From Bryobacterales bacterium (GTDB lineage Bacteria > Acidobacteriota > Terriglobia > Bryobacterales > UBA6623): a DNA stretch of 64,000 nucleotides. Both the position numbers and the translations under genes were made by a program. The stretch lies in contig OZ220485.1 of the NCBI GenBank assembly GCA_965116065.1, forward strand, positions 3,112,989-3,176,988. The letters run 5' to 3'. Shown here one piece after another: positions 2,850 to 59,490 of this stretch (position 1 is the first letter of the stretch; the number at the start of each line of letters is the position of its first letter). The notes under the pieces were generated by a model that searched no databases, was not told where the DNA came from, and saw nothing but the letters and a program-made list of their open reading frames with translations.

Positions 2850-3102
2850 GGGGATTATATACTCGATTGCCCAAATCGTGATATGATCTTATCCGAATCC
2901 TGACTGAGGACATCGAGATGGCGAATAGGGTCTCCGGCAAAGCCCACCGCGAAGGCATCAGCCTGGTCGAGTTGTTCCAGATGTTCTCGCATGACCAGGT
3001 GGCGCAGGAATGGCTCGAAGAGCAGCGATGGGGCGGCGGGCGGTGGTGCCCGCACTGCGGCTCGTTCAACGTCCGGCTTGGGCAACGAGGTATATAATCC
3101 CC
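2850..3102 (+). mobile_element. 253-bp IS1595-family-derived miniature element keeping only the N-terminal zinc-ribbon stub of the transposase
   Basis: It has perfect 13-bp terminal inverted repeats, GGGGATTATATAC (2850-2862) and GTATATAATCCCC (3090-3102). It is flanked by the 8-bp direct repeat AATCGATC (2842-2849 and 3103-3110). The internal 59-codon ORF 2918..3097 reads MANRVSGKAHREGISLVELFQMFSHDQVAQEWLEEQRWGGGRWCPHCGSFNV, which resembles the IS1595 Zn-ribbon N-terminus. Confidence 0.8.
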
Positions 3103-3335
3103 AATCGATCCAATCGGGGCGCTTTCGCCCACCGGCCCCATCTGTCGCAGGTGCCTGTCCAGAGGGTCTATCCAGGAGGCTCCCGCGAGTGCCTCCAGAT
3201 GCCAACGGAAGTTCGTCGAGCCGGACTCATGGCACCGTCGCAGGCCGCCGCACACTGGCACGTCACGGCGTTGGCAACTCCCGGTGGACCCCGTGATATG
3301 CTACGCCAAGCGGGTGTGGCACCCGTCGGTGCGAG

Positions 3336-6694: not shown

Positions 6695-7176
6695 CAAGGT
6701 TGAGGTGGAGCGGCTGCTGGCCCTGTGCCGTCGGGGCACGGTCGGCCATCCTGCGCAGGATATCGAGGAACGGTTTGCAGGGCAGCCAGCGCCTGCTCCG
6801 CGCTGAGATGCACGACAGGGATGTGCCGGGGCAATGCCCGGCATTGCCACTGCACTGCACACGTTGGGCGACCCAGGCATCGCTCGCGGGGCCGGTCGGC
6901 GTGGCGCGCTGAAGGGACGACCGGGACCGAAGCCAGCTTGCTGACCAGCCCATCATCGGTGGTGGCGCAGGAGAACTGGGACGAACCGATCGGGACGGCC
7001 GTACCACGGGAGAGAGGCAGCGTGTTCGCAGGAGCGCCCGGCATGATTTCGGGTTCACGATCTTGCCTGGAACTCACATCTCCCGCCAAGCCCTCGACCC
7101 CACCGAAAGCCCTGTATTGCAATGGTTTTCAGGTTACGATGTTCCCATGACCTGCCCCCGAGGTCAGGATGTCTGA
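6695..7176 (-). mobile_element. Miniature element copy B, main part with intact left-end terminal repeat
   Basis: Homology to copy A and to 17247..17690 resumes here and ends with CCGAGGTCAGGATGTCTGA at 7176. Copy B has about 95 bp more internal sequence than copy A. Confidence 0.7.
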
Positions 7177-7401
7177 ATCTACGATGCGCTCCGCCAGGCA
7201 GGTGCCAGCGAGGAACCTGCGTATACTGCAGTGCAGAGGATTTGCGACGTGGCATCTGCAAATCTCATTACCCAGATGTTGGCCAAGATGGACGCCATGA
7301 ACGCGGATATTGCGGCCCTGAACGCCAAACTGAACATGCTGATGTGGATGATCGGAGCCGCTGTTGCGGTGATCGGCCTGATCGTACGGCTGTCGAGTTA
7401 G
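7177..7401 (+). pseudogene. DUF1640-like small coiled-coil/C-terminal-TM protein, 5' end replaced by the miniature-element terminus
   Basis: The frame IYDALRQAGASEEPAYTAVQRICD...LNMLMWMIGAAVAVIGLIVRLSS begins immediately after the in-frame TGA that forms the element end (7174-7176). The first possible start is GTG 7231. This is a paralog of 7606..7854. Confidence 0.5.
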
Positions 7402-7605
7402 CGGTTCCCTCGTCTGTTGCATCCCAAATCACGGAGTTCATAGCCGACCCGTCCCTGCGGAGGCGGTCAGTCGGTCCGTCTGGATCTGCTTGGTCCCCAG
7501 ACCCTGACGGGCATCCGAGGAACTTAGAATAGACACCGTGTCGTCGAGAGCGACGAGATCTCACAGCCGTACCAGTGGTCGGCCCACCGCACTGCTAGTG
7601 GTCGG

Positions 7606-7854
7606 GTGTGCTACGATGCGCTCCGCCAGACAGGCGCCAGCGAGGAACCCGCGTATACTGCAGTGCAGAGGATTTGCGACATGGCAACTGCAGATCTCAT
7701 TGCCCAAATGTTGGCCAAGATGGATACACTGAAGGTCGCAATCTCAGCGCGGAAGGCTGTGATCGCGGCCCAGAACACCAAGCTGAACATGATCATGTGG
7801 ATGATCGGAGCCGCTGTTGCCGTGATCGGCGTGATCGTACGGCTATCGGGCTAG
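7606..7854 (+). CDS. DUF1640-like small protein (coiled coil plus C-terminal TM helix)
   Basis: The 82-aa ORF has a GTG start. YDALRQTGASEEPAYTAV...KLNMIMWMIGAAVAVIGVIVRL follows the DUF1640 pattern by recall (FDT..L..AG..E.QA... then W..G). Confidence 0.6.
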   Translation: MCYDALRQTGASEEPAYTAVQRICDMATADLIAQMLAKMDTLKVAISARKAVIAAQNTKLNMIMWMIGAAVAVIGVIVRLSG

Positions 7855-8126
7855 AAGTTCTCTCGCCTGTCGCATCCTGAATCATGGGGGCACATAGCCT
7901 ACTCGTCGCTGCGAAGGCTGCCAGTTGGCTCGGATGGGCCTGCCTGGTTCCCGGGCTCGGACCAGTATCCAAGGTGTCTGCCATGCATGTCACGCAGCCG
8001 GAAGCGACGAGATCTCGCGACAGCACTGGCGGAGCGTGAATTGCACGGGGACGATCGGAAAGATCCACCGCGCTCGGCAGTCCCTCGCCGTGTCTCTCAT
8101 TCCTTGACTTTCGACCAGACCCGGAC

Positions 8127-10067
8127 TTAACCGCCTAACGCCGCAACGATGGCGTCCACGTCATAGACGCAGCCCGCCCACGTGCCTCCGCTGCATGCCT
8201 GCATCGCGGCCCAGAGCCGGGTGTCATCAGGAATGTCGGGATGCGCCGACAGATCCGGTCGGCTCACACGTCCAGCCAGGATGCGCGAACCCTCTGCGGC
8301 ACCGAACCTGTCCCCTTCGTGCCCCACGAGGTCGACAGTGCCCCGGAGCCGGTTGCAGTCGATCTCGATGCGGAGTATGTCGCCTTCCAGCAGCTTGCCG
8401 AGCGGGCCTCCCGCTAGCGCCTCAGGACCGACATGGCCGATGCAGGCGCCGGTTGACACGCCTGAAAAGCGCGCATCCGTGACCACGGCGATCTCCTTCC
8501 CGCACGATACGTGCTTGAGTGCCGACGTGATCTGGTAGATCTCCTCCATGCCGGATCCGAGCGGCCCACAGCAGATCAGCGCCATGATGTCGCCCGGGCC
8601 GACGGAGCCGTTCTTGAGCGCCTCGATGGCGTGGGCTTCACGGGTGAAAATCCGCGCCCGCCCTTCCTTCCGGTAGACGCCGTCGGAATCGACGACGGAC
8701 GGATCAATGGCCGTGCTCTTCACGACCGATCCTTCAGGAGCCAGGTTCCCGCGGCAGAACGTGATCGTGCTGGTGAGGCCCCTCCGTGCCGCGGATTCCT
8801 GAGAATGGATGACCTCATCGGGGTCAACGTTGTCCGTTTCGTGCAGCAGGTCGCGGAACTTTCGTCGACGCTCGCAGCGCTCCCACTCATCCAGCACCTG
8901 CTCGAGAGGGATACCCGCAGCCGTGAGGACATCAAGGTCCAGCAGTTCAAGGTCGCGGAGCCGGAGCATGACCTCCGGCACCCCGCCCGCCAGGAACACC
9001 CGAACGGTCGGATGGCCCACCGGGCCGTTCGGGAGAACATCGACTAAACGCACGACCCGACGGTTGACCGCTTCCCACTCATCGACCGTCGGCCGGCCCA
9101 GTCCCGCACAGTAGGCCACGGCAGGCAGATGCAGGAGCAGGTTCGTTGATCCCCCGAAGGCCGCATGAGTGACCATGGCGTTCCGCAATGCACCTTCGGT
9201 CAGGATGTCGCGTACCGTCAGTCCGGAAGCCCTCTGTGCCATGACCGCTTCGGCGGCTTGGCGGGCGGCGTGTTTCCACACGGGCTGCCCGGAGGGAGCA
9301 AGTGCGGAATGCGGCAGGGCCAGCCCAAGCGCCTCGGCCACGACCTGGGCTGTAGCCGCCGTGCCCAGGAACTGGCACCCGCCCCCCGGAGATCCGCAAG
9401 CCTTGCAGCCGAATTCCCGGGCCTTCTGCAAGCTCAGTTCACCATGGGAGAAGCGTGCACCGATCGTCTGCACCTTGCCGGCATCCTCCCCGTCCATCGA
9501 CGGCAGCGTGACACCCCCCGGGACCAGCACACATGGCAGATCGTGCATGGATGCCAAGGCCATCATCATCGCTGGCAGTCCCTTGTCGCAAGTGGCGACA
9601 CCCACCACTCCGCGACGGGTCGGCAGAGAACGGATCAGCCGGCGCAGCACCTGGGCTGCGTCATTCCGATACGGAAGCGAGTCCATCATGCCCGGGGTGC
9701 CCTGGGTCCGACCGTCACAGGGGTCACTGCAGAATCCCGCGAACGGGATCGCCCCGCGATCCCGGAGTTCGATCGCAGCCTCCCGCATGAGCAGTCCGAC
9801 CTCGAAGTGCCCGGTGTGGTATCCGAGAGCCACTGGCGCCCCATCCTCGCCCCGGATTCCGCCCTGCGTACTGAGGATCAGGTATTCGTCACGGCCCAGA
9901 TGAGCGGGGTTCCAGCCCATGCCCGCATCCTGTGTCCACCCGAAGATATCGCCGCTGGGAAGCGTGCGGAGCATCGCTGGCGTCAGGGGGAGCTGACCCG
10001 AGGGGCCCGGCGCCGCCGTCTGTATCTCGTAAATCGCGGGATCATCCCCACCGAACAAACTGCGCAT
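8127..10067 (-). CDS. IlvD/Edd-family dehydratase, YjhG/YagF-like sugar-acid (D-xylonate-type) dehydratase
   Basis: ORF 8127..10193. I prefer the ATG at 10067 (MRSLFGG) because the upstream extension is Arg/Gly-rich and would overlap the divergent sulfatase start. Motifs seen are [28 protein letters not shown] and [17 protein letters not shown]. Confidence 0.85.
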
Positions 10068-10153
10068 CGACTTCCAGTGTGGCCGATTCGTAACGGATGG
10101 ACGCTCGGGACGGCCCCCGCCCGGGTCCCCGCGTATTAACCTAGAGCAATATC

Positions 10154-11554
10154 GTGACCTGTGTGACTCGCCTACTCTCGATTCTCGTCGCAAGCACGGC
10201 TTGGGCAGCGTCCCCGAACATCGTCCTGATCATGGTCGACGACCTGGGCCCGGAATGGATCTCCAGCTACGGGGCCGAGGGCATCGAGACCCCCAACATC
10301 GACAAGCTGGCCGAGGGCGGGATGCTCTTCCGCAATGCCTACTCCATGCCCCAGTGCACGCCGACGCGCGTGACACTGCTCACCGGGCAATACCCGTTCC
10401 GGCACGGCTGGACGAATCACTGGGACGTGCCGCGCTGGGGCGCCGGCTGCCATTTTGACCCCCAGCATAACCTCTCGTTCGCAAGGCTGCTCCGCGATGC
10501 AGGCTATGTCACGGCGATCGCCGGCAAGTGGCAGATCAACGACTTCCGCATCCAGCCCCGGATTCTGGATCGCCACGGTTTCGATGAGTGGTCGGTGTGG
10601 ACGGGCGGAGAGGGCGGCAACCCGGTCAGCGACGAGCGGTACTGGGATCCGTACATCTTCACCAACAGCGAGGCCAGCAGGACCTACGCCGGCAGGTTCG
10701 GACCCGACATCTACAACGAGTTCCTGGTCGAATTCGTCCGCAGGAACGCCGGACAACCGATGCTGCTCTATTACCCAATGGCCCTCACGCACGGGCCGCT
10801 CGTCGACACGCCCCACGAGCCGTTCGCGGAGACATCCCTGGAGAAGCACAAGGCCATGGTCCGCTATACCGACTACCTGGTCGGACGACTCGTCAAGGCG
10901 ATTGATTACGCCGGGGTCCGGAACAACACGATCATCATCTTCACGACCGACAACGGCACATCCCGCGGCATCCGTGGCCGGCTCAACGGGCGCCTGATTC
11001 GCGGTGGCAAGGCCCAGTTGACGGAGAACGGTCCGCGGCAGCCCTTCATCGTGAACGGGCCAGGCCTGGTCCCTGCCGGGGTGGAGACGGATGAGCTGAC
11101 CGACTTCTCGGACCTGTTTCCGACCTTCTGCGAACTGGCCGGCGTGGAACTGCCCGATGGCATCGACATCGACGGAGAGTCGATCGCACCGCTCCTGCTC
11201 GGCAAATCAACCAGCGGTCGGCGCGAGTGGATGGCCGCGATGGGGTTCGGACCGGCGAAGCTGGACGAGATGGGTGTGCGGGGTGTCGATGACTACGCTC
11301 CCCGAGTGATTCGGAACAAGCGCTACAAGATTCATGTCCACGACGGGACGATACGGAAACTGTACGACCTCGCCAGAGATCCGGGCGAGACGCGCAACCT
11401 GCTTGCCAGCGAGCTTCCCGAGCACGTTGCGGCCCTCAGGAAACTGCGAGCCGCGAGCGAGACCATGCCCGACAAGGACGCTCGCCCCCGTTATGACCCA
11501 CTACCGCCACAACCGTGGGACGTCACGATCGAGGAGATGAACCGCAAGCGGTGA
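10154..11554 (+). CDS. Secreted formylglycine-dependent sulfatase
   Basis: The 466-aa ORF has an N-terminal signal-like [16 protein letters not shown]. It contains [11 protein letters not shown] and the CTPTR (C-x-P-x-R) signature followed by LLTGQYP. Confidence 0.9.
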
Positions 11555-11600
11555 TCGGGCGGAACGGAAGCAGCAGGAAGGCCGGTTCCGGGGTGCCTTC

Positions 11601-51417: not shown

Positions 51418-54400
51418 TCACAGGGAGTCGAACTGCACTTCGTTGCTCTTGACACCATCGACGGCAATCTTGAGCGTGTGCGTCCCGGCCGCCAGATCGT
51501 CCGGCAGCGCGATCACCACTTCGTAGACACCAGCCTCGAACACTGCCAGTGCGCTGGACCTCACATCGACAGACCGGTCGTCCACCCAGGCTGTCGTCAC
51601 ACCGGTCACCAGGTTCGGCGGCAGGGCCTGGCCGGAACGGCCAGTTGTCGCGGCCGGCGTCACGGATCCGAGTCCCGTGGCGTAGGCATACAGGTCGTCG
51701 CCGGCCATCGGCAGCTTACCGCTGCCAGCCTGGGACAAGACGCCCGTCCTCGGAGCAGCCCCGACCCGGTCCGCAAACAGGCCTGGCTGGACGGGACTGA
51801 TCTGCACGGCGGCAAACTCGCTTCTCCCGTACGGAGTCTTGACGACGATATCGGTCGAGCCAGCAGGTACGCCGAACGGAATCTGAAACGTCACCTCACC
51901 GGGCGCCACCGACAACAGTGGTGCACCCGCTCCTCCAACCTGGACCTGGGTACCTCCAAGCCGCCTAGGAAGTGCTAGATTCCCGAACACGAGCAGCGTC
52001 GTCGCCGATTTCGTCTCTGCCGCCAGTCCAGCACCCCGGATCGTTGCCAGGCTGCCGGGCGCGAAACCACGACCAGCGGAAGGGGCCTCCCCACTAGCGG
52101 CATTGACGATTCCGGAGGCAACCATCCAGGGTTGCTGCTCCGCAACGGAGGCTGTCGTCAGGACAAAGGTGGATGGCTCCCCCTTCAGTTCCGCTTTCAG
52201 CACTTGGGTTCCCGCCCGATCCCCGAGCGGCCATTCGACCGTGCCTCGGCCGCTGAAATCCGTCACGACACTCGGAATCTCGATGCGCTCGGAGGTACTC
52301 GCGGAAAATGCCAACTCGACTCCGCTGTACGGAACATGGTTCTCGTCGAGTACGCGATACTGCACAGGTTCGGTCACGGCGGTTCCAGCGATTCCGTACA
52401 CGCCTGAGGACTGCGACAACAGCTTCAATCCGCTCAAGCCTTCCCTGACCTTCAGTCTGGTGGCCGCAGTATCATAACCGGGCTCGGCAGCCCGTGCGGT
52501 GAGCGTCGTCACCCCGGCCTCCAACCCGGAAAGCGAGAATTCCGCGAACAGATCTCCAGCCGGGATCACCACGGAATTCGGTACGGTTGCGATGGCGTCC
52601 CGCAGATCAAGCAACACCGTCAGATCGGTGTCACGAGCCTCGGAGATGATGACGCGAGCGGTCCCGCTGGATCCCTGGATCAGGCCCCCCGCCGGAAAGG
52701 TCGACAGATGGAGCATCCGAACGAGTTCGGTTGCCGTGGTGGCGGCATCCCCGAATTGCACTCGCGCGTATGCGCGCCAGTTTCCACGGAGCTGATTGAG
52801 CCGTCGGATCGACTCCTGGCCCGGCGACGCTGCATCGTCAACGAGAAGAAGAAATGCGTAACGGAACTGCCTTTGCGAGACCGTCGAATCCGGACGGCGC
52901 TCTCCGGCGGCTGCAATGATGTCCTCGAGCCGAACTTCCTTGCGAACACCGTCAAACCAGACATCGGGTTCGGGGGACCTGGCGGCGTTTCCGAAGTGCA
53001 CCCCTCCCTTCGCGTCCTGCACAAGGAAGGTTGCCGGCACCTCGCTCGGGGCAACCAACCCCATGAGGTACTTGTCGAGCTGGCTGTAGCCCTGCGAGGA
53101 AGCGGTCGTCTGGAACCGCGGCGAAGCGTCCGGTCCGTGGTCCTTGATTGCATTGCCCTCGAGTACTGATGCGTCGGAATTGAAGTAGAAGCTCCAGTGG
53201 GAGGACTGCCTTCCCAGCAGATCCTTGGAATCCAGTCCCGACTCCGGGTCTTTCCATGTCGCATACGCGAGGAAGCGGTGGCCCAGTTCATGGGCGAGGA
53301 CGGTCAGCAGCGACGAGTTGTCAGGCAGTGTACTGATGCGAGCAAGTGGACTGGCCGGATAGCTGGAAGTCGCCCCCATGTTGACGAATGCAGCGAGCCT
53401 CCTGGGGGAGCCGAAGTACTCCCCGGCGTCAATGATGGAATCGCCGATACCCTCCACATAGTTCCGGATCGGCCAGGCATGAGCCAGGGAAGCCCTGCTG
53501 GCCGGTAGGCTAAGATCATTGAAGAGAATTAGGGTGTCGTAGGCATCCTCGTGGTGCCTGTAGAACTCCTGCACGATCGCAAACTCATCCATGCCCTCTT
53601 TGTCGGAGAACACTTCCGCGATGATCGCGCCGGCGGGGACCGTCTCCGGAGCCGTGTCGCTCCAGTTCACGTAAACCGCATCTCGGTCCACCGGCCCGGG
53701 AAAGATCCCCACGACACCATGGGGACTATCCAGGCTTCCATAGCGGAACTCGATGCTGCCATCGGACTTCAGTGTCATCTGAAACGTCTGGCGGCTCCCG
53801 AGCCCGGTATCCTGCCACAACGGAATGTCGTACCAGGTGACGGTCACGCTGCTGCCTTCCACGATGGTCGAGACCTGACCTCCCTGGCTGGGATCCAGAT
53901 CCTGGAAGAACGGGGCTATGCGTGGGGGGCCTCCGACCGCACGAGAATAGTTCCGTTCCCGTCGACTCGCTTCCGGGATCACGAACGTGAAATTCCCGTC
54001 TGAATGCACGAAACCGCGGTCATAATTCTCCTCGTAGTACGGAAACGCGAACGGAAACTCGACGACCGCGAAATCGTCATCGTCCATGGGGATCGGAATT
54101 CCGGTCGGCTCGACCGCCATTCCAGCCGACAACGCACTTCCCTGCACCGTGAATCCAGCGGGGCCCGGCTTGATCGTGACCATTCGACCGGACATGTCGA
54201 CCTGATTGGGAGCACGAAGCAATGCCGGCGCCGCTTCGATCAGGGCGATGTCACCGGACTTGATCGGGCGCGGTGAATCGATCTCCAATGTGCGCGGCGA
54301 CTCCGGGGGGAGTGGAAACCGCTGCCAGTCCTCGTACTTCGTCGCTACCTTGGTGTTCTTCTCGGGGGCGGTTCCGTGCTCCAGGTGGAGCCGCTGCTGG

Positions 54401-54573
54401 TGCAGGAAGAGAACCTCTTGCGGGCTGCGAGAAGTTCCACATACGGCGATGGGCCCTTCGTGGTCGGGAGCGGCCCACACTGGCTGCGAGACCAACGCTG
54501 CCAGTGCAGTCATCCCCAACAGGGCGCCGCGCGGAAATCGGGACTCCATGGTGAACTTGCCTAATTGTCGCAT
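51418..54573 (-). CDS. Large secreted HExxH zinc-metalloprotease-like protein with C-terminal Ig-like repeats of the TIGR03437 type
   Basis: ORF 51418..54687, with a probable start at ATG 54573 or 54549 (signal ALLGMTALAALVSQPVWA). It contains LTVLAHELGHRFLAY. The C-terminal repeats include GSLATIRGAGL, VQVGGAGAPLLSVAPGEVTFQIPFGVPAGSTDIVV and PVQPGLFA. Confidence 0.8.
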   Translation of the reverse strand: MRQLGKFTMESRFPRGALLGMTALAALVSQPVWAAPDHEGPIAVCGTSRSPQEVLFLHQQRLHLEHGTAPEKNTKVATKYEDWQRFPLPPESPRTLEIDSPRPIKSGDIALIEAAPALLRAPNQVDMSGRMVTIKPGPAGFTVQGSALSAGMAVEPTGIPIPMDDDDFAVVEFPFAFPYYEENYDRGFVHSDGNFTFVIPEASRRERNYSRAVGGPPRIAPFFQDLDPSQGGQVSTIVEGSSVTVTWYDIPLWQDTGLGSRQTFQMTLKSDGSIEFRYGSLDSPHGVVGIFPGPVDRDAVYVNWSDTAPETVPAGAIIAEVFSDKEGMDEFAIVQEFYRHHEDAYDTLILFNDLSLPASRASLAHAWPIRNYVEGIGDSIIDAGEYFGSPRRLAAFVNMGATSSYPASPLARISTLPDNSSLLTVLAHELGHRFLAYATWKDPESGLDSKDLLGRQSSHWSFYFNSDASVLEGNAIKDHGPDASPRFQTTASSQGYSQLDKYLMGLVAPSEVPATFLVQDAKGGVHFGNAARSPEPDVWFDGVRKEVRLEDIIAAAGERRPDSTVSQRQFRYAFLLLVDDAASPGQESIRRLNQLRGNWRAYARVQFGDAATTATELVRMLHLSTFPAGGLIQGSSGTARVIISEARDTDLTVLLDLRDAIATVPNSVVIPAGDLFAEFSLSGLEAGVTTLTARAAEPGYDTAATRLKVREGLSGLKLLSQSSGVYGIAGTAVTEPVQYRVLDENHVPYSGVELAFSASTSERIEIPSVVTDFSGRGTVEWPLGDRAGTQVLKAELKGEPSTFVLTTASVAEQQPWMVASGIVNAASGEAPSAGRGFAPGSLATIRGAGLAAETKSATTLLVFGNLALPRRLGGTQVQVGGAGAPLLSVAPGEVTFQIPFGVPAGSTDIVVKTPYGRSEFAAVQISPVQPGLFADRVGAAPRTGVLSQAGSGKLPMAGDDLYAYATGLGSVTPAATTGRSGQALPPNLVTGVTTAWVDDRSVDVRSSALAVFEAGVYEVVIALPDDLAAGTHTLKIAVDGVKSNEVQFDSL

Positions 54574-55517
54574 TGTAACGGAGAGACGGATGATCGGTTC
54601 GGCCAACCGGAGCCAGCGCCCATGGTTTGCTTCGGGCTCTGGCCGATTGTAAGGGCCGCACGAACACAGATCGGGGATACGCCCCACCTGTCTTCCGTTG
54701 CTAGCGAGTCACTGCGACATGGTGCTGGCTAGGCTCGGATGTTGTGCAACCCTTCAGCGGTTGCTGTGGCGTATTGCATGCAGGTGAGTGCCACAGCACG
54801 GTAGCTGGCTCAGCGTGACCGCGCGAGAACGGGGTGGCCGAAGCAGGTCATGCCTGCGGGGCCGTCGGAGCGGGGACCCGTAGGAGTTGCGGGTAGACGT
54901 GGTGAGGTCGTCGTCGAATGTCCATGCGCGGCTGCGTGGCGGCGCAGGACGCGGGAGAGTTGGCGATGCCATTGCAACTGCATCTCCATCGACCCGACGA
55001 CCCCCACTTGACGGATCACCAACGCGTTGTATCTCGGTCACGGCACGAAGTTCGTCCAGCACCCGATCGCTCCGACACAACAGGAGAGGCAGCCGAAGAC
55101 CCGCATGTAGGCTATGAGGCCCATCGGACAACCTCCCATGCGCACGTTCGCATGTTGAGTCTCCAGCACGTAACCGGTCATGCGCCGACGCGTTGCTCCC
55201 GGACGGCAAATCTGCGCGCGTCTTCGTGGTTGCGGTACGACCACCGCCACTGGAACAGCGGAACTCTGCCCGTACCACCGATACACTCCGGAGGCGTGGA
55301 AGCCCCCCGCACACGAGATGTCCGCGGCAGTCCGACAACGGGAAGCGACTTCGATCCAGCCATTCGCCCTCGGCAATCCGGAAGTCTGCCTCTCTTCCCC
55401 GCACGCCATGAAGGTTGCTCCTGCACTCCGCAGAACGGAAACATCTCGACGCCCACAGTGGATGGTTACACGGCCCTCCTAGAGATCGAGTACGGAACAT
55501 TCAACACCTCCGGACGG

Positions 55518-57569
55518 GTAAACGTTCGAGTGGGCAGTGGAAGGCAGGCAGTGAGGAGGAGCGCCGGAGGCTGGCCAGCCGCTGCGGGCTGAGGGGTGGG
55601 CGGCCCACAGCGTCCTTGGCCGGGCCACCCGAGCGGCGGGCAGGTCGCCGGGGTCAGCCGGGCCGGAGCAGCGCCTGGCGGCGGTCCGGGGGCATGCCCC
55701 ACGGCAGCCACTCCTGCGGCTCCGGCACGGTCGCGCCCGGCCCCTGCCGGGCGCACTCGCCCAGGAAGGCCTCCAGCCAGCGCTCCAGATCGATGCCGGC
55801 CATGTCGAGCGTGCTGCACACCGACAGCAGCAGGCCCTGCAACTCCGCCCCGGTCGCACTGTGCGAACCGTGGCTGAGCTGGCGCCCGATCACGACCGGG
55901 CGCAGGGCCCGCTCGACACGGTTGTTGTCCATAGGCACGCACGGCTGCTGCACGCAGACCGACAGGCCCGTGCGATAGCGCAGCAGCGAAGTCAACGGTC
56001 CCAGGCGCGGGTCGCCCGCAACCGGGGCGCTCGCCGCCACGCTCTGCTGCTCGCTTTCGACGTACGCGAAGAACGCACTCATCGCGGTGGCGAACTGCTC
56101 CTGCAGCGCCTGCCACCGCGCCGACTGGTGCTCACCGTCCCGCTCGGGCTGCCAGTGCCGGTGCCGCTCGCGGTGCAGCCGGTACAACTCCCCGATGCGC
56201 CGCACGATTCCCTCCGCCCAGGTCCGCCAGGGCGGATGACGGTCGGCCAGGCGCACGAAATCGCGCCGGGCGTGGGCCCAGCAGATGGCCAACTCCAACT
56301 GGCCGGCGTGGTCCCGCGCCAGCTTGTCGTAGGCCGCATAGCGATCGCACACCAGCACCGCCCGCCCGCTCTGTCCCAGCGGCCCGAACAGGACCTTCGC
56401 TGCGGCCGCGCTGCGCGCCGGATCGACCCGGAAGCGCACCGCCTCGGACGTCAGGCAGGCCCACAGCCAGCAGCGCGGATTGTGCCCCTGCTCGCCCCGC
56501 GCCTGCACCCTCCACGACGTCTCGTCCCCATGTACCAGCAGCGCCTGCCGTTGCTGCACCCCGATGGCCTGCTCCAGCGGTGCGAACCAGTGCACGAAAT
56601 CCTGCTGATGCCCCAGCAGACTGCTCGCCGGCAGCGCCAGCCCCCGCTCGGCCCACTCCCGCTCGAAGGCCCGCACCGGCCGGCGTTGCCAGTACACCTG
56701 CAGCAGGAACTCCACCCACACGCTCAGACCGTAGCAGGTTCCCCGGAACAGCGTCGGCGGCAACCCCGCCTGCACCGTGGGCGCCTGCTGGCCGCGGGCC
56801 TGCGCGCACTCGCAGGCCGCCCGATAGCGGGGCCGCCGGATGCGCCGTCGGTAGCTGCGCACCTCCACCTCGACCCGCTCGCTGACCGCCACCCCGTGCC
56901 GCTGGAAGGGCCGCCCGCAGTCCCCGCACACCCGCCTCTCCGCCGGCAGGTCCCGCTCCTCGGTCCGCTCCTCCAACTCGGGCCGGGCCACCCGCGGATG
57001 GGCTTTCGCTCCCGGTTGCCCGCCCCGCGCCCGCCGGCCCGACCGCCCCGCCACCGCATCCGCCTCGCCCGCCTCTGGCTCCGGCGCCCGCTTCTCACTC
57101 CTCGCACCAAAGGCCGCCCGCAGCAGATCGGCCCGATTCGGCGGCTGTCCGGCCGCCGCCTGCCGCCACTCCGCCACCTGCTGCTGCAGCGCCTCCCGCT
57201 CCTGCTCCCCGACCACCGCCTGCCGCTGCAGTGCCGCGCACTCGGCCTGCGTCTGCACCAACTTCTTCCGCATCACACGGTGCTGCGCCTGCTCGGCCCG
57301 CAACCGCTCCCGCAGCCGCTCCCCGCGTTCCTTCGCCCGACCGTGCTGACTCTTCCAGTACCCCGCCTGCCGCTTCCACTCCCACCTCTCCGCCGACCGC
57401 TTCCGACACTCCCGCTCTCCTCCGCACCGCTCCACCGACTGCCTCTGCTCCGCCACCTGCCTGCGCCCGCACTGAAAACATATCATCCTTCCTGTGTTCT
57501 GTGCAACTCCTCGCCCTCCTTGCCGTCACCTGGCCCCGTCCTAGCCCCACTGCCCGCTCGAACGTTTAC
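55518..57569 (-). mobile_element. IS66-family insertion sequence, single-ORF type, 2052 bp
   Basis: The terminal inverted repeats are GTAAACGTTCGAGTGGGCAGTGG (from 55518) and CCACTGCCCGCTCGAACGTTTAC (ending 57569), with one mismatch. They are flanked by the perfect 8-bp direct repeat CCGGACGG (55510-55517 and 57570-57577). Confidence 0.9.
55654..57486 (-). CDS. IS66-family transposase (TnpC-like); no tnpA or tnpB present
   Basis: The 610-aa ORF has an N-terminal CFQCG zinc finger and a coiled coil. It also contains CGDCGRPF, HGDETSWRV, CDRYAAYDKL, CWAHARRDF and PMDNNRVERALRP. Confidence 0.9.
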   Translation of the reverse strand: MICFQCGRRQVAEQRQSVERCGGERECRKRSAERWEWKRQAGYWKSQHGRAKERGERLRERLRAEQAQHRVMRKKLVQTQAECAALQRQAVVGEQEREALQQQVAEWRQAAAGQPPNRADLLRAAFGARSEKRAPEPEAGEADAVAGRSGRRARGGQPGAKAHPRVARPELEERTEERDLPAERRVCGDCGRPFQRHGVAVSERVEVEVRSYRRRIRRPRYRAACECAQARGQQAPTVQAGLPPTLFRGTCYGLSVWVEFLLQVYWQRRPVRAFEREWAERGLALPASSLLGHQQDFVHWFAPLEQAIGVQQRQALLVHGDETSWRVQARGEQGHNPRCWLWACLTSEAVRFRVDPARSAAAAKVLFGPLGQSGRAVLVCDRYAAYDKLARDHAGQLELAICWAHARRDFVRLADRHPPWRTWAEGIVRRIGELYRLHRERHRHWQPERDGEHQSARWQALQEQFATAMSAFFAYVESEQQSVAASAPVAGDPRLGPLTSLLRYRTGLSVCVQQPCVPMDNNRVERALRPVVIGRQLSHGSHSATGAELQGLLLSVCSTLDMAGIDLERWLEAFLGECARQGPGATVPEPQEWLPWGMPPDRRQALLRPG

Positions 57570-57730
57570 CCGGACGGAGCCAACCCCAGACAAAATGATC
57601 GTACATCGCACTTAGCGTCCCACAGATCCTCGCTCACCCCGTGAACGGCGGAGATTCAGGGCAAGAACATGCCCATGTCAAGGGAGTTGATCAGTTATAC
57701 TCGTAACTGAGAATAAGCGGACCCATACCT

Positions 57731-59050
57731 TCACTTTACCATCCATCCGTTTTTCTTGTTCAATCTCCTGAGACCCGACAGTGTGTATATGTTGCTTTTG
57801 GCACGGTTACACGGGCCACAGAGCAAAATGCGATTCGAGATATGATTCAGCCCACCATCCGCCCGAGGCGTGTTGTGGTCGAGCTGCAGATAGCGCGAGT
57901 CATCGAACATTCTGTCACAACCTTGACATTTGGAGCCGTACTGATCTAATAAGAACTCGTACATATCAGATCGGCTCATTCGCTGCGAATCCGGTTCCCT
58001 GATGCGTTCACGTACTTGAAGAAAGGCCACAGTATTCGTGTCATTATCAGTGCGAATCGGCGGAATATTCTGGTAATGTACGTCGCCAAACGCCAGCATT
58101 TCTCCGCTGGTTCCATCCGCTGAAAGTCCCTCTTTTCGCAGTCGATCGAGAACCACCTCGTGTGCCCGATTCCAAATATCGATTCCAACCCATTGACGGC
58201 CTAGCCGCTCTGCGGCCACACAAGTCGTAGCACATCCGGCGAACGGGTCAAGCACGATGTCACCTTGGTTGCTGGAAGCCTTGATGATGCGCTCGTACAG
58301 GGCTATTGGTTTCTGCGTAGGGTAGCTCGTCGACTCATGTTGATTCCCTCGCAAGGCTGGGATATCCCAGTAGTCTCGCATGCCCACCATGGTGTAGGCA
58401 CCGATTTCGTCTTCGAGAATATTCACGTTCTTGAATCCGTATCGATGAGACAGATAGGACTTTTCGTGCAATTGATTGAATTGGTAGCGGTTCGATTTCG
58501 AATAAAACAACAATAAATCGTGCTTTCGACTGAACCAGCGTGTGCTTGTTCCGCCAGTCTTGTAACACCATACGATCTCGTTTCGGAACTGTTTACGCCC
58601 GAAAACTGCATCCATCAATTGCTTCAAATAGTGACTTGCAGTAGGGTCACAGTGCATGTATATCGAACCTGTTGGCTTTAGAATCCGTCGCATTTCCAGC
58701 AATCTGACTGCCATGAAGCAAAGAAACGCACCCATGTCGTCACCGTAGCTTGAACGGGATCCATTGACTACATTCATGACGTTCGGATAGTCATCCGTGA
58801 TCTGGTCTACCCAATTCTGGTGAACATCACGATCCCACGACCAGCGATCCTGAAACCGCGCACCTGCCGCAAGGCTATCGGGTGTGGCATGAAAATCGCG
58901 CCCTTTGTTGAATGGTGGATCGGTAGCGATAAGGTCCACAGATTCACTGCACATCCCGCGGAGAAATTTCAGATTGTCTCCATGAAACAGCGTGCGGTTT
59001 TCCCAATTGGAACCACCTGATGTACGTGTGTCTTTGCTTGGTTTGGCCAC
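57731..59050 (-). CDS. Beta-class N6A/N4C DNA amino-methyltransferase fused to a C-terminal HNH nuclease domain
   Basis: The 439-aa ORF has a GTG start. Motif IV (VDLIATDPPF) precedes motif I (IVLDPFAGCATT), which is the beta-class order. The C-terminal ~80 aa read CQGCDRMFDDSRYLQLDHNTPRADGGLNHISNRILLCGPCNRAKSN (CxxC...DH-N...N...CxxC-N HNH pattern). The gene is ~42-43% GC in three hand-counted lines, against ~67% in the flanking peptidase gene. Confidence 0.9.
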   Translation of the reverse strand: MAKPSKDTRTSGGSNWENRTLFHGDNLKFLRGMCSESVDLIATDPPFNKGRDFHATPDSLAAGARFQDRWSWDRDVHQNWVDQITDDYPNVMNVVNGSRSSYGDDMGAFLCFMAVRLLEMRRILKPTGSIYMHCDPTASHYLKQLMDAVFGRKQFRNEIVWCYKTGGTSTRWFSRKHDLLLFYSKSNRYQFNQLHEKSYLSHRYGFKNVNILEDEIGAYTMVGMRDYWDIPALRGNQHESTSYPTQKPIALYERIIKASSNQGDIVLDPFAGCATTCVAAERLGRQWVGIDIWNRAHEVVLDRLRKEGLSADGTSGEMLAFGDVHYQNIPPIRTDNDTNTVAFLQVRERIREPDSQRMSRSDMYEFLLDQYGSKCQGCDRMFDDSRYLQLDHNTPRADGGLNHISNRILLCGPCNRAKSNIYTLSGLRRLNKKNGWMVK

Positions 59051-59058
59051 GCAATGAC

Positions 59059-59087
59059 AGCATAGCGGATCTTCACAGTGGCGTCAA
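59059..59087 (-). promoter_or_regulatory. Sigma70-like promoter abutting the MTase-HNH start codon
   Basis: On the minus strand: TTGACG (59087-59082), a 17-nt spacer, TATGCT (59064-59059), then 8 nt to GTG 59050. No Shine-Dalgarno sequence lies in between. Confidence 0.35.
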
Positions 59088-59490
59088 TGCTGTCTTGAAA
59101 CGCACCTCCGATTCTCAATGTAGATGTTCGGTTCTGTCCATGCCGCTCAGATTCGCATCCCAGTGTCTTGCATTAGAGCATATCAATCGTCGTGCTTGAC
59201 GTCGCAACCTTGGCGGCCGGAGAGTGGAATGCCAAATTCCCGGTGGTCAGTGAGTCCGCCAGCCCCACTGACCGCTCCAGTCCACCCTGTTGGCGCCATT
59301 CATTCCCCGCCATTGCTGATCTTCATGTAGTTCGCTGTCAACGTACTTCGAGAGTACCTCATCAAGTTCCGCTACGCAGCGAAGCACTGCAGTTGGATCA
59401 ACGTGGCCGCGTGCAGTCCGACTTGCCTGACATGGTGGGCCCCGCAGGTCGCTGACTTCGGGGAAGCCGACCGCCAACCCGGTCTCCGGC

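Follow-up and report, generated by a model that had tools for sequence, protein, structure and literature searches.

The window analysed here is a stretch of 64,000 nucleotides (nt) from a Bryobacterales bacterium (contig OZ220485.1 of assembly GCA_965116065.1, positions 3,112,989 to 3,176,988 of the forward strand), in which positions are counted from the first letter. Between an element of the IS66 family of insertion sequences (IS) and a gene for an M28 peptidase lies a reverse-strand gene that encodes a DNA methyltransferase joined in frame to an HNH domain, and which we consider as a candidate for a restriction-modification (RM) enzyme contained in one polypeptide. An earlier note, made from the letters of the sequence alone, had described 57731..59050 as the only gene in this interval, and it is indeed the sole real gene there. 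The gene and the parts of its product, numbered in amino acids (aa), are as follows.

57731..59050, reverse strand: methyltransferase-HNH fusion coding sequence, 439 aa, an uninterrupted open reading frame (ORF) with GTG start at 59048-59050 and TGA stop at 57731-57733; Pfam PF01555 and PF01844
58154..58939, reverse strand: predicted beta-class N6-adenine DNA methyltransferase domain, aa 38-299; PF01555 N6_N4_Mtase
58331..58498, reverse strand: hypervariable segment, aa ~185-240, the putative target-recognition domain
57929..58153, reverse strand: inter-domain linker, aa 300-374, without Pfam match and partly conserved (PP.RTD, EP.G.kMsR..MY..LL)
57791..57928, reverse strand: predicted HNH (beta-beta-alpha-metal) nuclease domain with CxxC...CxxC zinc ribbon, aa 375-420; PF01844

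The N-terminal domain matches PF01555 over aa 38-299 with E=5e-46 and 157.7 bits, against a cut-off of 26.7 bits. Motif IV, ATDPPFNK, occupies aa 42-49 (58904-58927), with DPPF itself at aa 44-47, and motif I, DIVLDPFAGCATT, is found at 58223-58261, with VLDPFAGCATT at aa 266-276 and DPFAGCATT at aa 268-276. Motif IV therefore stands ahead of motif I, which is the circularly permuted order of the beta class and, together with a Pfam score above the cut-off, bears out the beta-class motifs first noted from the letters. NCBIfam, PADLOC and PHROGs agree in calling a DNA methyltransferase; the best PADLOC matches are plain Type II and Type III models (MTase_II/MTase_III), and the orphan-methyltransferase model is weaker. 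By both sequence and fold, the nearest solved relatives are CcrM, M.BceJIV, M.RsrI, M.MboIIA and the Type III Mod subunit (EcoP15I Mod). The aspartate of DPPF and these structural relatives point to adenine N6 as the probable target of methylation.

An in-frame zinc-ribbon HNH motif had also been claimed on the C-terminal side of the methyltransferase, and the Pfam profile supports an HNH domain at aa 375-420 (PF01844, E=1.5e-9, 38.3 bits against a cut-off of 21.4 bits). Its signature reads CQGC...DHNTPRADGG...NHISNRILLCGPCNRAKSN, and D391, H392, N406 and N415 are the catalytic candidates. NCBIfam and PHROGs detect the HNH part as well, the NCBIfam models being of the IscB/Cas9d type, and a profile built on the C-terminal module retrieves the HNH domains of Cas9, IscB and TagI at E values of 5e-10 to 3e-8. 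The closest solved HNH relatives are Cas9, IscB, TagI, Gmet_0936 and a group II intron maturase, with which the signature aligns residue for residue. The AlphaFold2 model has a mean predicted local distance difference test score (pLDDT) of 76, falling to 32-84 across the linker and HNH regions; within the latter it places strands at 388-390 and 409-411, followed by a helix at 412-418, where pLDDT is only 44-84. Foldseek matches to the whole model span the methyltransferase part only, and the PDB/Foldseek search returned no solved structure spanning both methyltransferase and HNH.

Searching 5.8 billion proteins yielded at least 120 clusters of homologues, 62-78% identical to the window protein and ~400-475 aa long, and both Pfam domains are present in all of them. 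A parallel genome scan, limited to one genome per species, found 221 relatives, of which the best 79-80 loci (denoted by L numbers below) were used for work on hosts and context. Conservation above 90% over the 120 clusters is confined neither to one domain nor the other, comprising the methyltransferase motifs and the HNH core (CQGC..DHNtPRsDGG..NHisNR.LLCgPCNr.KSN). In 48 homologues D44, P45, P46, F47, D268, P269, F270 and G272 are invariant in the methyltransferase, as are C375, C378, D391, H392, N402, N406, C411, C414, N415 and K418 in the HNH domain; the zinc-ligand cysteines, D391-H392, N406, N415 and K418 remain so when distant paralogues are added. Since the HNH residues and motifs IV and I are invariant among proteins of 62-78% identity, purifying selection has probably acted on both activities. 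Frameshifted or split copies occur at L028, L038, L039, L040, L045 and L046 (near 10001-11300; at 2713-4019 in L045) and, being found in at least six loci, they indicate frequent decay within the family.

Variation in the family alignment is concentrated elsewhere. High column entropy and many insertions and deletions are confined to aa ~185-240, the position at which beta-class enzymes carry the target-recognition domain. In some ten loci this segment has been exchanged in frame for a longer, unrelated one, while the flanks remain 50-78% identical to the query. When classes were computed on the trimmed variable core, with the conserved flanks removed, 192 family proteins fell into at least 28 cassette classes, the largest of which (103 members) includes the window protein. 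Three cassette classes are shared between scaffolds with different types of nuclease.

The C-terminus is likewise exchangeable. Paralogues at most loci end in HNH; the GIY-YIG-like T5orf172/MUG113 domain is found instead at L044, L050, L051, L062 and L069, and Mrr_cat, of the PD-(D/E)XK type, replaces HNH on the same methyltransferase scaffold at L064, L066 and L072. Because three unrelated nuclease-type folds occupy the same position, DNA cleavage is the likely task of the C-terminal module. The same HNH module (47-67% identity over ~100 aa) also recurs outside the family, behind ankyrin repeats in P0138, behind bacterial PH domains in P0173 and P0177, and behind unassigned N-termini in other proteins; the variety of N-terminal partners in these uncharacterised fusions fits an effector module. 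On these grounds the C-terminal position is the predicted slot for a DNA-cleaving effector and the internal cassette the predicted seat of specificity, with selection apparently favouring diversity in the latter.

Several loci carry the gene in head-to-tail arrays, which range from 2 to 11 or more copies. The largest, at L044 (Dehalococcoidia CAXXBX010000034.1, 1-12414), has at least 11 copies and that at L051 (9992-17718) has six; there are four to five at L062 (6026-11284) and L064 (8978-19508), and L041 (8835-12459) has three full methyltransferase-HNH copies. Identity between the copies of an array is 85-100% over the catalytic halves and nuclease but falls to 0-15% in the recognition segment, where their lengths also differ. 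The arrays look like batteries of multiple specificities, the uniformity of which would be maintained by gene conversion. The literature searched offered no specific precedent for methyltransferase arrays of sponge symbionts.

The solitary context of the window gene is repeated across the family. No restriction, specificity, helicase or controller gene was found near it, in agreement with the initial description, and the 13 kb upstream of it contain housekeeping genes, with ordinary functions in metabolism or the cell envelope. Small ORFs in 59051-59490 and 54754-55592 have no Pfam match even at E<=1, so that no controller protein is evident among them. All-against-all clustering of ORFs within 5 kb on either side of the gene at 80 loci revealed no conserved partner, recovering only shadow ORFs, the transposase of an IS1595-family element and host genes. 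A Res helicase-nuclease was found neither in the window neighbourhood nor as a conserved feature of the 80 loci. There is no transfer RNA (tRNA) gene in the whole window, and integration linked to a tRNA was rejected for this reason.

By its base composition the window gene looks foreign, as had been proposed. Its guanine-plus-cytosine content (GC) is 49.8% and its GC at third codon positions (GC3) 55%, compared with 64% GC for the 64-kb window, 14 points higher, and 65% GC and 76% GC3 for the M28 peptidase gene; in a scan of all 64 kb it is the lowest 1.3-kb stretch (z = -6.2). The lines of 42-43% GC reported previously do exist (58441-58680), but these are the extremes of the gene and its mean is that given above. 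Across 50 intact family loci the gene tracks host GC in part (r=0.78, slope 0.65) and lies more than 5 points below it in 21 of the 50. The 14-point deficit in the window is among the largest of these loci, which suggests that the gene is a relatively recent arrival.

The 5' end of the gene requires comment. The database protein P0001 (407 aa), identical to the window gene product, begins at M33. Residues 15-32 are conserved in homologues, with N15, R19-L21 and H23-L27 invariant, and because homologues retain the N-terminal segment that P0001 omits, translation more probably begins at the GTG at 59050. The start call of P0001, which leaves out window codons 1-32 (58955-59050), is probably too short. 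The flanks on either side are as follows.

59051..59490, reverse strand: upstream intergenic region, with a promoter-like TTGACG-17-TATGCT at 59059-59087, directly before the start codon
57578..57730, no strand assigned: downstream intergenic stretch from the stop codon to the IS66 junction, without similarity to IS1595 small ORFs, transposase or right end
55510..57577, reverse strand: IS66-family element with its target duplications; element 55518-57569, transposase 55654-57486 (PF03050 DDE_Tnp_IS66, E=3e-48)

The promoter-like site was found by a consensus scan, in which such sites were not enriched over shuffled sequence, and it is therefore indistinguishable from chance. Two transposons that carry the gene in other genomes (L089 and L090, described below) have, on the inner side of their left inverted repeats, a sequence loosely similar to the core of this site and equally spaced from the GTG; the terminal GGGAATTATAA of those repeats is absent from the window.

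In relatives the gene is frequently mobile. The only recurrent neighbour is an IS1595-family transposase (PF12762 and PF12760), present at 18 of the 80 loci in one of two layouts, either directly upstream on the same strand or directly downstream and convergent. At five loci, among them L089 and L090, which are the nearest relatives on long contigs, long terminal inverted repeats with GGGAATTAT-type termini enclose both transposase and methyltransferase.

L089: element 6941-9939; encoded protein 75% identical to the window protein; inverted repeats of 68 nt
L090: element 6947-9826; encoded protein 72% identical to the window protein; inverted repeats of 45 nt, 98% complementary
L046: element 8673-11477
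L006: element 8581-11591
L030: element 8901-11584

Target duplications are perfect and 8 bp long in four of the five (L006, L046, L089 and L090), reading TTTGGATT in L090 and AATGCAAG, ATTCGTAA and AAAATTTG in the others; that of L030 is imperfect. Paired end motifs also flank the transposase and methyltransferase genes at L031, L038 and L079. As inverted repeats and target duplications enclose it, the gene is evidently a passenger of an IS1595-family transposon of ~2.7-3.0 kb. The copy within L046 has itself decayed, although the enclosing element still has intact ends. 'Transporter' ISs with passenger genes were first defined in the IS1595 family, according to Siguier et al. 2009 as cited in PMC3129680, and the literature search found no report of a methyltransferase-nuclease passenger on IS1595 elements.

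No such element surrounds the window copy. Queries with IS1595 DNA, transposase and small ORFs gave no significant remnant beside the gene or across the reconstructed junction that preceded the IS66 insertion, and the DNA similarity of the window to all other loci ends with the coding sequence (57731-59017). With neither IS1595 ends nor transposase beside it, the window copy would be a stranded passenger. At the opposite end of the window, an IS1595-type end motif, GGGATTATATACTCGATTGCCC, at 2851-2872 is followed by a stretch resembling a transposase zinc ribbon at 2888-3154 (tblastn E=6e-11), from which we infer an IS1595-family element or remnant elsewhere in the genome, 55 kb from the methyltransferase gene.

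The IS66 element is complete, with a single ORF, 33-nt inverted repeats and termini GTAAACG...CGTTTAC, and is flanked by a perfect 8-bp duplication, CCGGACGG (55510-55517 and 57570-57577). Since the duplication ends at 57577, position 57578, given previously as the left edge of a low-GC island, is exactly the IS66 insertion junction. A composite transposon involving IS66 was rejected, given the element's own perfect 8-bp duplication and its very different GC (73%, against 50% in the methyltransferase gene). The sequence features indicate that the IS66 element is an independent insertion, outside the methyltransferase unit. A stretch of 17 nt in the IS66 end (57543-57559) is similar to 59261-59277, but the terminus of the repeat lies outside it and the likeness was treated as chance. 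Beyond the element, the ~800 bp at 54690-55510 have host-like GC and ORFs without Pfam match, and until IS66 inserted they ran directly into the downstream flank of the methyltransferase gene. For the adjacent ORF of 1089 aa (51418-54687) Pfam gave nothing at E<=1e-5. Over residues 55-436, the first ~380 that align, its product shows 44% identity to the N-terminus of a protein of at least 1022 aa, the gene for which runs off the end of its locus (L090:14254-15353), and on account of this counterpart it appears to be a conserved, lineage-specific protein of unassigned function.

The L090 genome is related to the window organism, with orthologue identities of 78% (GFO_IDH oxidoreductase), 68% (GDPD), 59% (M28), 55% and 44%. 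Its transposon lies between the oxidoreductase and M28 genes, and the window gene lies on the opposite side of M28. The L090 methyltransferase-HNH gene has 60% GC against a background of 62-66%. Being across M28 from the window gene, and within an intact IS1595 transposon that has both ends and its own duplication TTTGGATT, the L090 copy is best regarded as a separate insertion. The comparison of gene order advocated in the earlier note thus finds the gene nearby as a second arrival, not as a native, conserved locus, and by this evidence the neighbourhood is variable and has been hit more than once. Adjoining the L090 transposon, at L090:3493-6968, is a block absent from the window that encodes an unknown protein of 227 aa, an AAA ATPase and an S8 peptidase; these three genes may form a further module, accessory or defensive, and the interval from GFO_IDH to M28 may be a variable hotspot.

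Hosts among the best 79 loci include Chloroflexota/Dehalococcoidia, Proteobacteria, Nitrospirota, Poribacteria, Latescibacterota, Bacteroidota and archaea of the Nitrosopumilaceae. Names of sponge symbionts recur among the records (Poribacteria, AqS3 and the Cenarchaeum symbiont of Oopsacas), and AqS3 was confirmed as a symbiont of Amphimedon. The family is apparently concentrated in sponge and other host-associated microbiomes, the habitat of anonymous metagenome-assembled genomes (MAGs) being deduced. Weaker relatives (~40% identity) include L059, a MAG titled as a deer rumen sample, and L056 and L057, which isolate labels suggest are termite-gut bins. A phage origin was rejected, as merely nine relatives lie on viral contigs and one of the nine has HNH.

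We propose that the window gene encodes a solitary, horizontally acquired, single-polypeptide RM enzyme of a Type IIC-like kind, a reading in which belief and doubt are, for us, evenly matched. The beta-class methyltransferase would read a short DNA motif through its internal target-recognition domain and, dependent on S-adenosylmethionine (AdoMet), methylate adenine N6 within it, marking the host genome as self. The C-terminal HNH, having no recognition module of its own, would be tethered to the same reader and would cut at or near unmethylated copies of the motif. With one active site in the HNH, a double-strand break would need two molecules; several beta-class methyltransferases act as dimers. 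Because one module would set specificity for both activities, a cassette swap would re-target both at once, and such joint re-targeting would explain both the cassette diversity of the family and the tandem arrays of multiple specificity. The gene would normally travel as an IS1595 passenger; in the window genome, transposase and ends would have been lost and IS66 would have landed beside the gene later.

A one-chain RM enzyme accounts for the missing partner gene, both invariant catalytic centres, the cassettes, the nuclease swaps, the arrays and the mobility. The family also has the mobile, selfish traits that are typical of RM genes, namely carriage as IS1595 cargo, spread across phyla and into archaea, frameshifted copies and GC below that of the host. 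The architecture, the solitary context, the foreign composition, the cassettes, the nuclease swaps and the transposon carriage all favour the one-polypeptide RM or defence module that had been suggested from the window alone, and restriction itself is predicted. The coupling of methylation and cleavage, the nuclease activity and a defence phenotype are likewise predictions from sequence. More tentatively, and with slightly less assurance than doubt, we suggest that the family as a whole is a class of RM enzymes, as yet uncharacterised, that are single chains of miniature size (~430 aa). Each would combine a beta-class methyltransferase, in which the internal recognition cassette is exchangeable, with a plug-in HNH, T5orf172 or Mrr nuclease; IS1595 transposons would have spread the class over bacterial phyla and archaea, and it could expand into arrays of up to 11 or more enzymes distinguished by specificity alone.

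Several considerations count against the RM proposal. In the combined RM enzymes that have been well studied, the methyltransferase is always of the gamma class and the nuclease an N-terminal PD-(D/E)XK domain (PMC4081073), and how the present build would spare an unmethylated host genome on arrival is unexplained by the model. The cassette class of the window protein is common to ~100 family members in many hosts, which would make for a weaker barrier between them. A profile that takes its name from inactive restriction endonucleases is also matched by the Mrr-type tails. The AlphaFold2 model is moderately confident in the linker and HNH (pLDDT 32-84) and does not inform the placement of the nuclease relative to the DNA-binding cleft. 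Finally, with the promoter-like site at 59059-59087 being at chance level, expression in the window genome is unproven. There are four rival explanations to be set beside these points, each less well supported than an RM enzyme.

The first would have the gene as selfish cargo, in which HNH nicks DNA for the spread of the gene itself, through recombination, gene conversion, tandem duplication or IS1595 transposition, and not for restriction, the methyltransferase being an orphan or serving to protect the element. Carriage by IS1595 transposons is as expected for such cargo, HNH and GIY-YIG-type domains are classic folds of homing nucleases (PMC4081073), the endonuclease domain of a group II intron maturase is among the closest solved relatives of the HNH, and the homogenised constant regions of the arrays imply frequent recombination or gene conversion. 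However, the transposase stands beside the gene at 18 of the 80 loci only and is a complete DDE enzyme with repeats and duplications of its own, the Mrr-type domain is able to replace HNH, and it is not obvious what mobility would gain from diverse recognition cassettes. Neither insertion site nor flank is kept between loci, so that site-specific homing is excluded; a homing nuclease in the strict sense, as the earlier note had offered for an alternative, is at odds with this and with a free-standing gene associated with no intron or intein. In its broader form we judge the selfish explanation unlikely.

Alternatively, the protein could be an orphan or counter-defence methyltransferase, its HNH-like tail a zinc-ribbon module for DNA binding or dimerisation and its role epigenetic or the protection of mobile DNA. 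Solitary methyltransferases are common, and PADLOC ranks plain Type II/III models best, with its orphan model weaker. An abundance of methyltransferases is reported for viruses and symbionts associated with sponges (PMC11410982, PMC6697440), and many Cys4 zinc motifs are structural (PMC4081073). In this family, however, invariance extends beyond the cysteines to the general base H392, the preceding aspartate and the metal-ligand asparagines; the tail can be aligned to HNH domains of proven catalytic activity and is interchangeable with two other nuclease-type folds; and the rarity on viral contigs (nine relatives, one with HNH) does not favour counter-defence. We consider a tail devoid of nuclease function to be quite unlikely.

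A third explanation concerns the window copy in particular, which might be a stranded and possibly silent remnant, perhaps decaying, with its ORF intact, its transposon lost and IS66 alongside. Such a fate would be consistent with the lack of IS1595 ends and transposase beside the gene, with the frameshifted copies at six or more other loci and with the weak evidence for a promoter. Against it, the frame of 439 codons is intact, every invariant residue is present and the promoter-like core is kept at the spacing seen in intact elements, and we think it very unlikely. Least probable of all is a guard or abortive-infection effector, with a nuclease that is silent while the methyltransferase is engaged, with AdoMet bound and its sites methylated, and freed to damage DNA once AdoMet runs low or the methyltransferase is blocked through the action of a phage, for although the HNH module is promiscuous in its fusions to PH and ankyrin domains and AdoMet controls cleavage in known combined RM enzymes (PMC4081073), the proposal is purely inferential, no sensor-specific feature was found and the cassette diversity suggests sequence-specific targeting over a generic alarm.

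If an RM enzyme is the correct reading, and a single recognition module serves both methylation and cutting, these proteins would be among the smallest self-contained RM enzymes, and the first combined type in which the methyltransferase is beta-class and the nuclease HNH. The cassette classes, at least 28 on a near-constant scaffold and in some arrays many next to one another, would offer a library of specificities that already exists in nature, like that of the MmeI family for the gamma class. Such a library would help both in the discovery of restriction or nicking enzymes and in understanding DNA recognition by the beta class. A one-gene RM unit borne on a transposon, and common to different phyla and domains in dense communities of symbionts, would also give a concrete means by which RM and methyltransferase genes could have reached the enrichment long noted in sponge microbiomes, the insertion sequence and an addictive RM gene each reinforcing the persistence of the other.

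Among known systems, the window protein most resembles the Type IIC/IIG enzymes (MmeI, BpuSI, Eco57I and the atypical BtgZI), with which it shares a methyltransferase and a nuclease in one chain and, as in MmeI, independence from any further gene for specificity or restriction. Both activities would be directed by a single recognition module, leaving specificity free to diverge within the family. Type IIC/IIG enzymes mostly comprise an N-terminal PD-(D/E)XK nuclease and a gamma-class methyltransferase (NPPY/F/W), with a specificity module that is C-terminal or separate (Pingoud et al., PMC4081073). BtgZI is the named exception, having an alpha-class methyltransferase at the N-terminus and a PD-(D/E)XK variant at the C-terminus, and is the sole characterised precedent for the order of domains seen here (PMC4081073). 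These enzymes differ from the window protein in their gamma-class methyltransferase (alpha in BtgZI), their PD-(D/E)XK nuclease, their separate C-terminal specificity domain and their length of ~900-1000 aa or more; the window protein departs from the canonical build in its beta-class DPPF, internal recognition domain and C-terminal HNH.

Considered separately, each half has closer counterparts. The beta-class N6-adenine methyltransferases (CcrM, M.BceJIV, M.RsrI and M.MboIIA) and EcoP15I Mod belong to the same Pfam family and share the order of motif IV before motif I, the DPPF and a recognition domain placed in the middle, but none has a fused nuclease. Type III systems need a Res helicase-nuclease subunit, whereas the Mod-like domain alone is present here, and the protein falls outside that type; movement of recognition domains from one Type III mod gene to another is documented in Helicobacter pylori (PMC3467074). 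The HNH domains of KpnI, MnlI, Hpy99I, TagI, McrA and Cas9/IscB have the beta-beta-alpha-metal fold that is predicted for the window protein and share its Cys4 zinc ribbon and DH...N...N, but there the partner of HNH is a dedicated recognition domain, an SRA/EVE reader or an RNA guide, and not a cognate methyltransferase. The IS1595 transporter elements hold the gene of the relatives between inverted repeats with a PF12762/PF12760 transposase, and the window copy differs in having neither ends nor transposase. No account of a beta-class methyltransferase joined to HNH came out of literature searches in several wordings, although REBASE may list one; the lack of a known enzyme with this layout, suspected at the outset, thus extends to the searchable literature and the PDB. 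Within the combined RM enzymes the protein would therefore represent a type with an unusual beta-methyltransferase/HNH build, belonging to a widely distributed family that is apparently uncharacterised.

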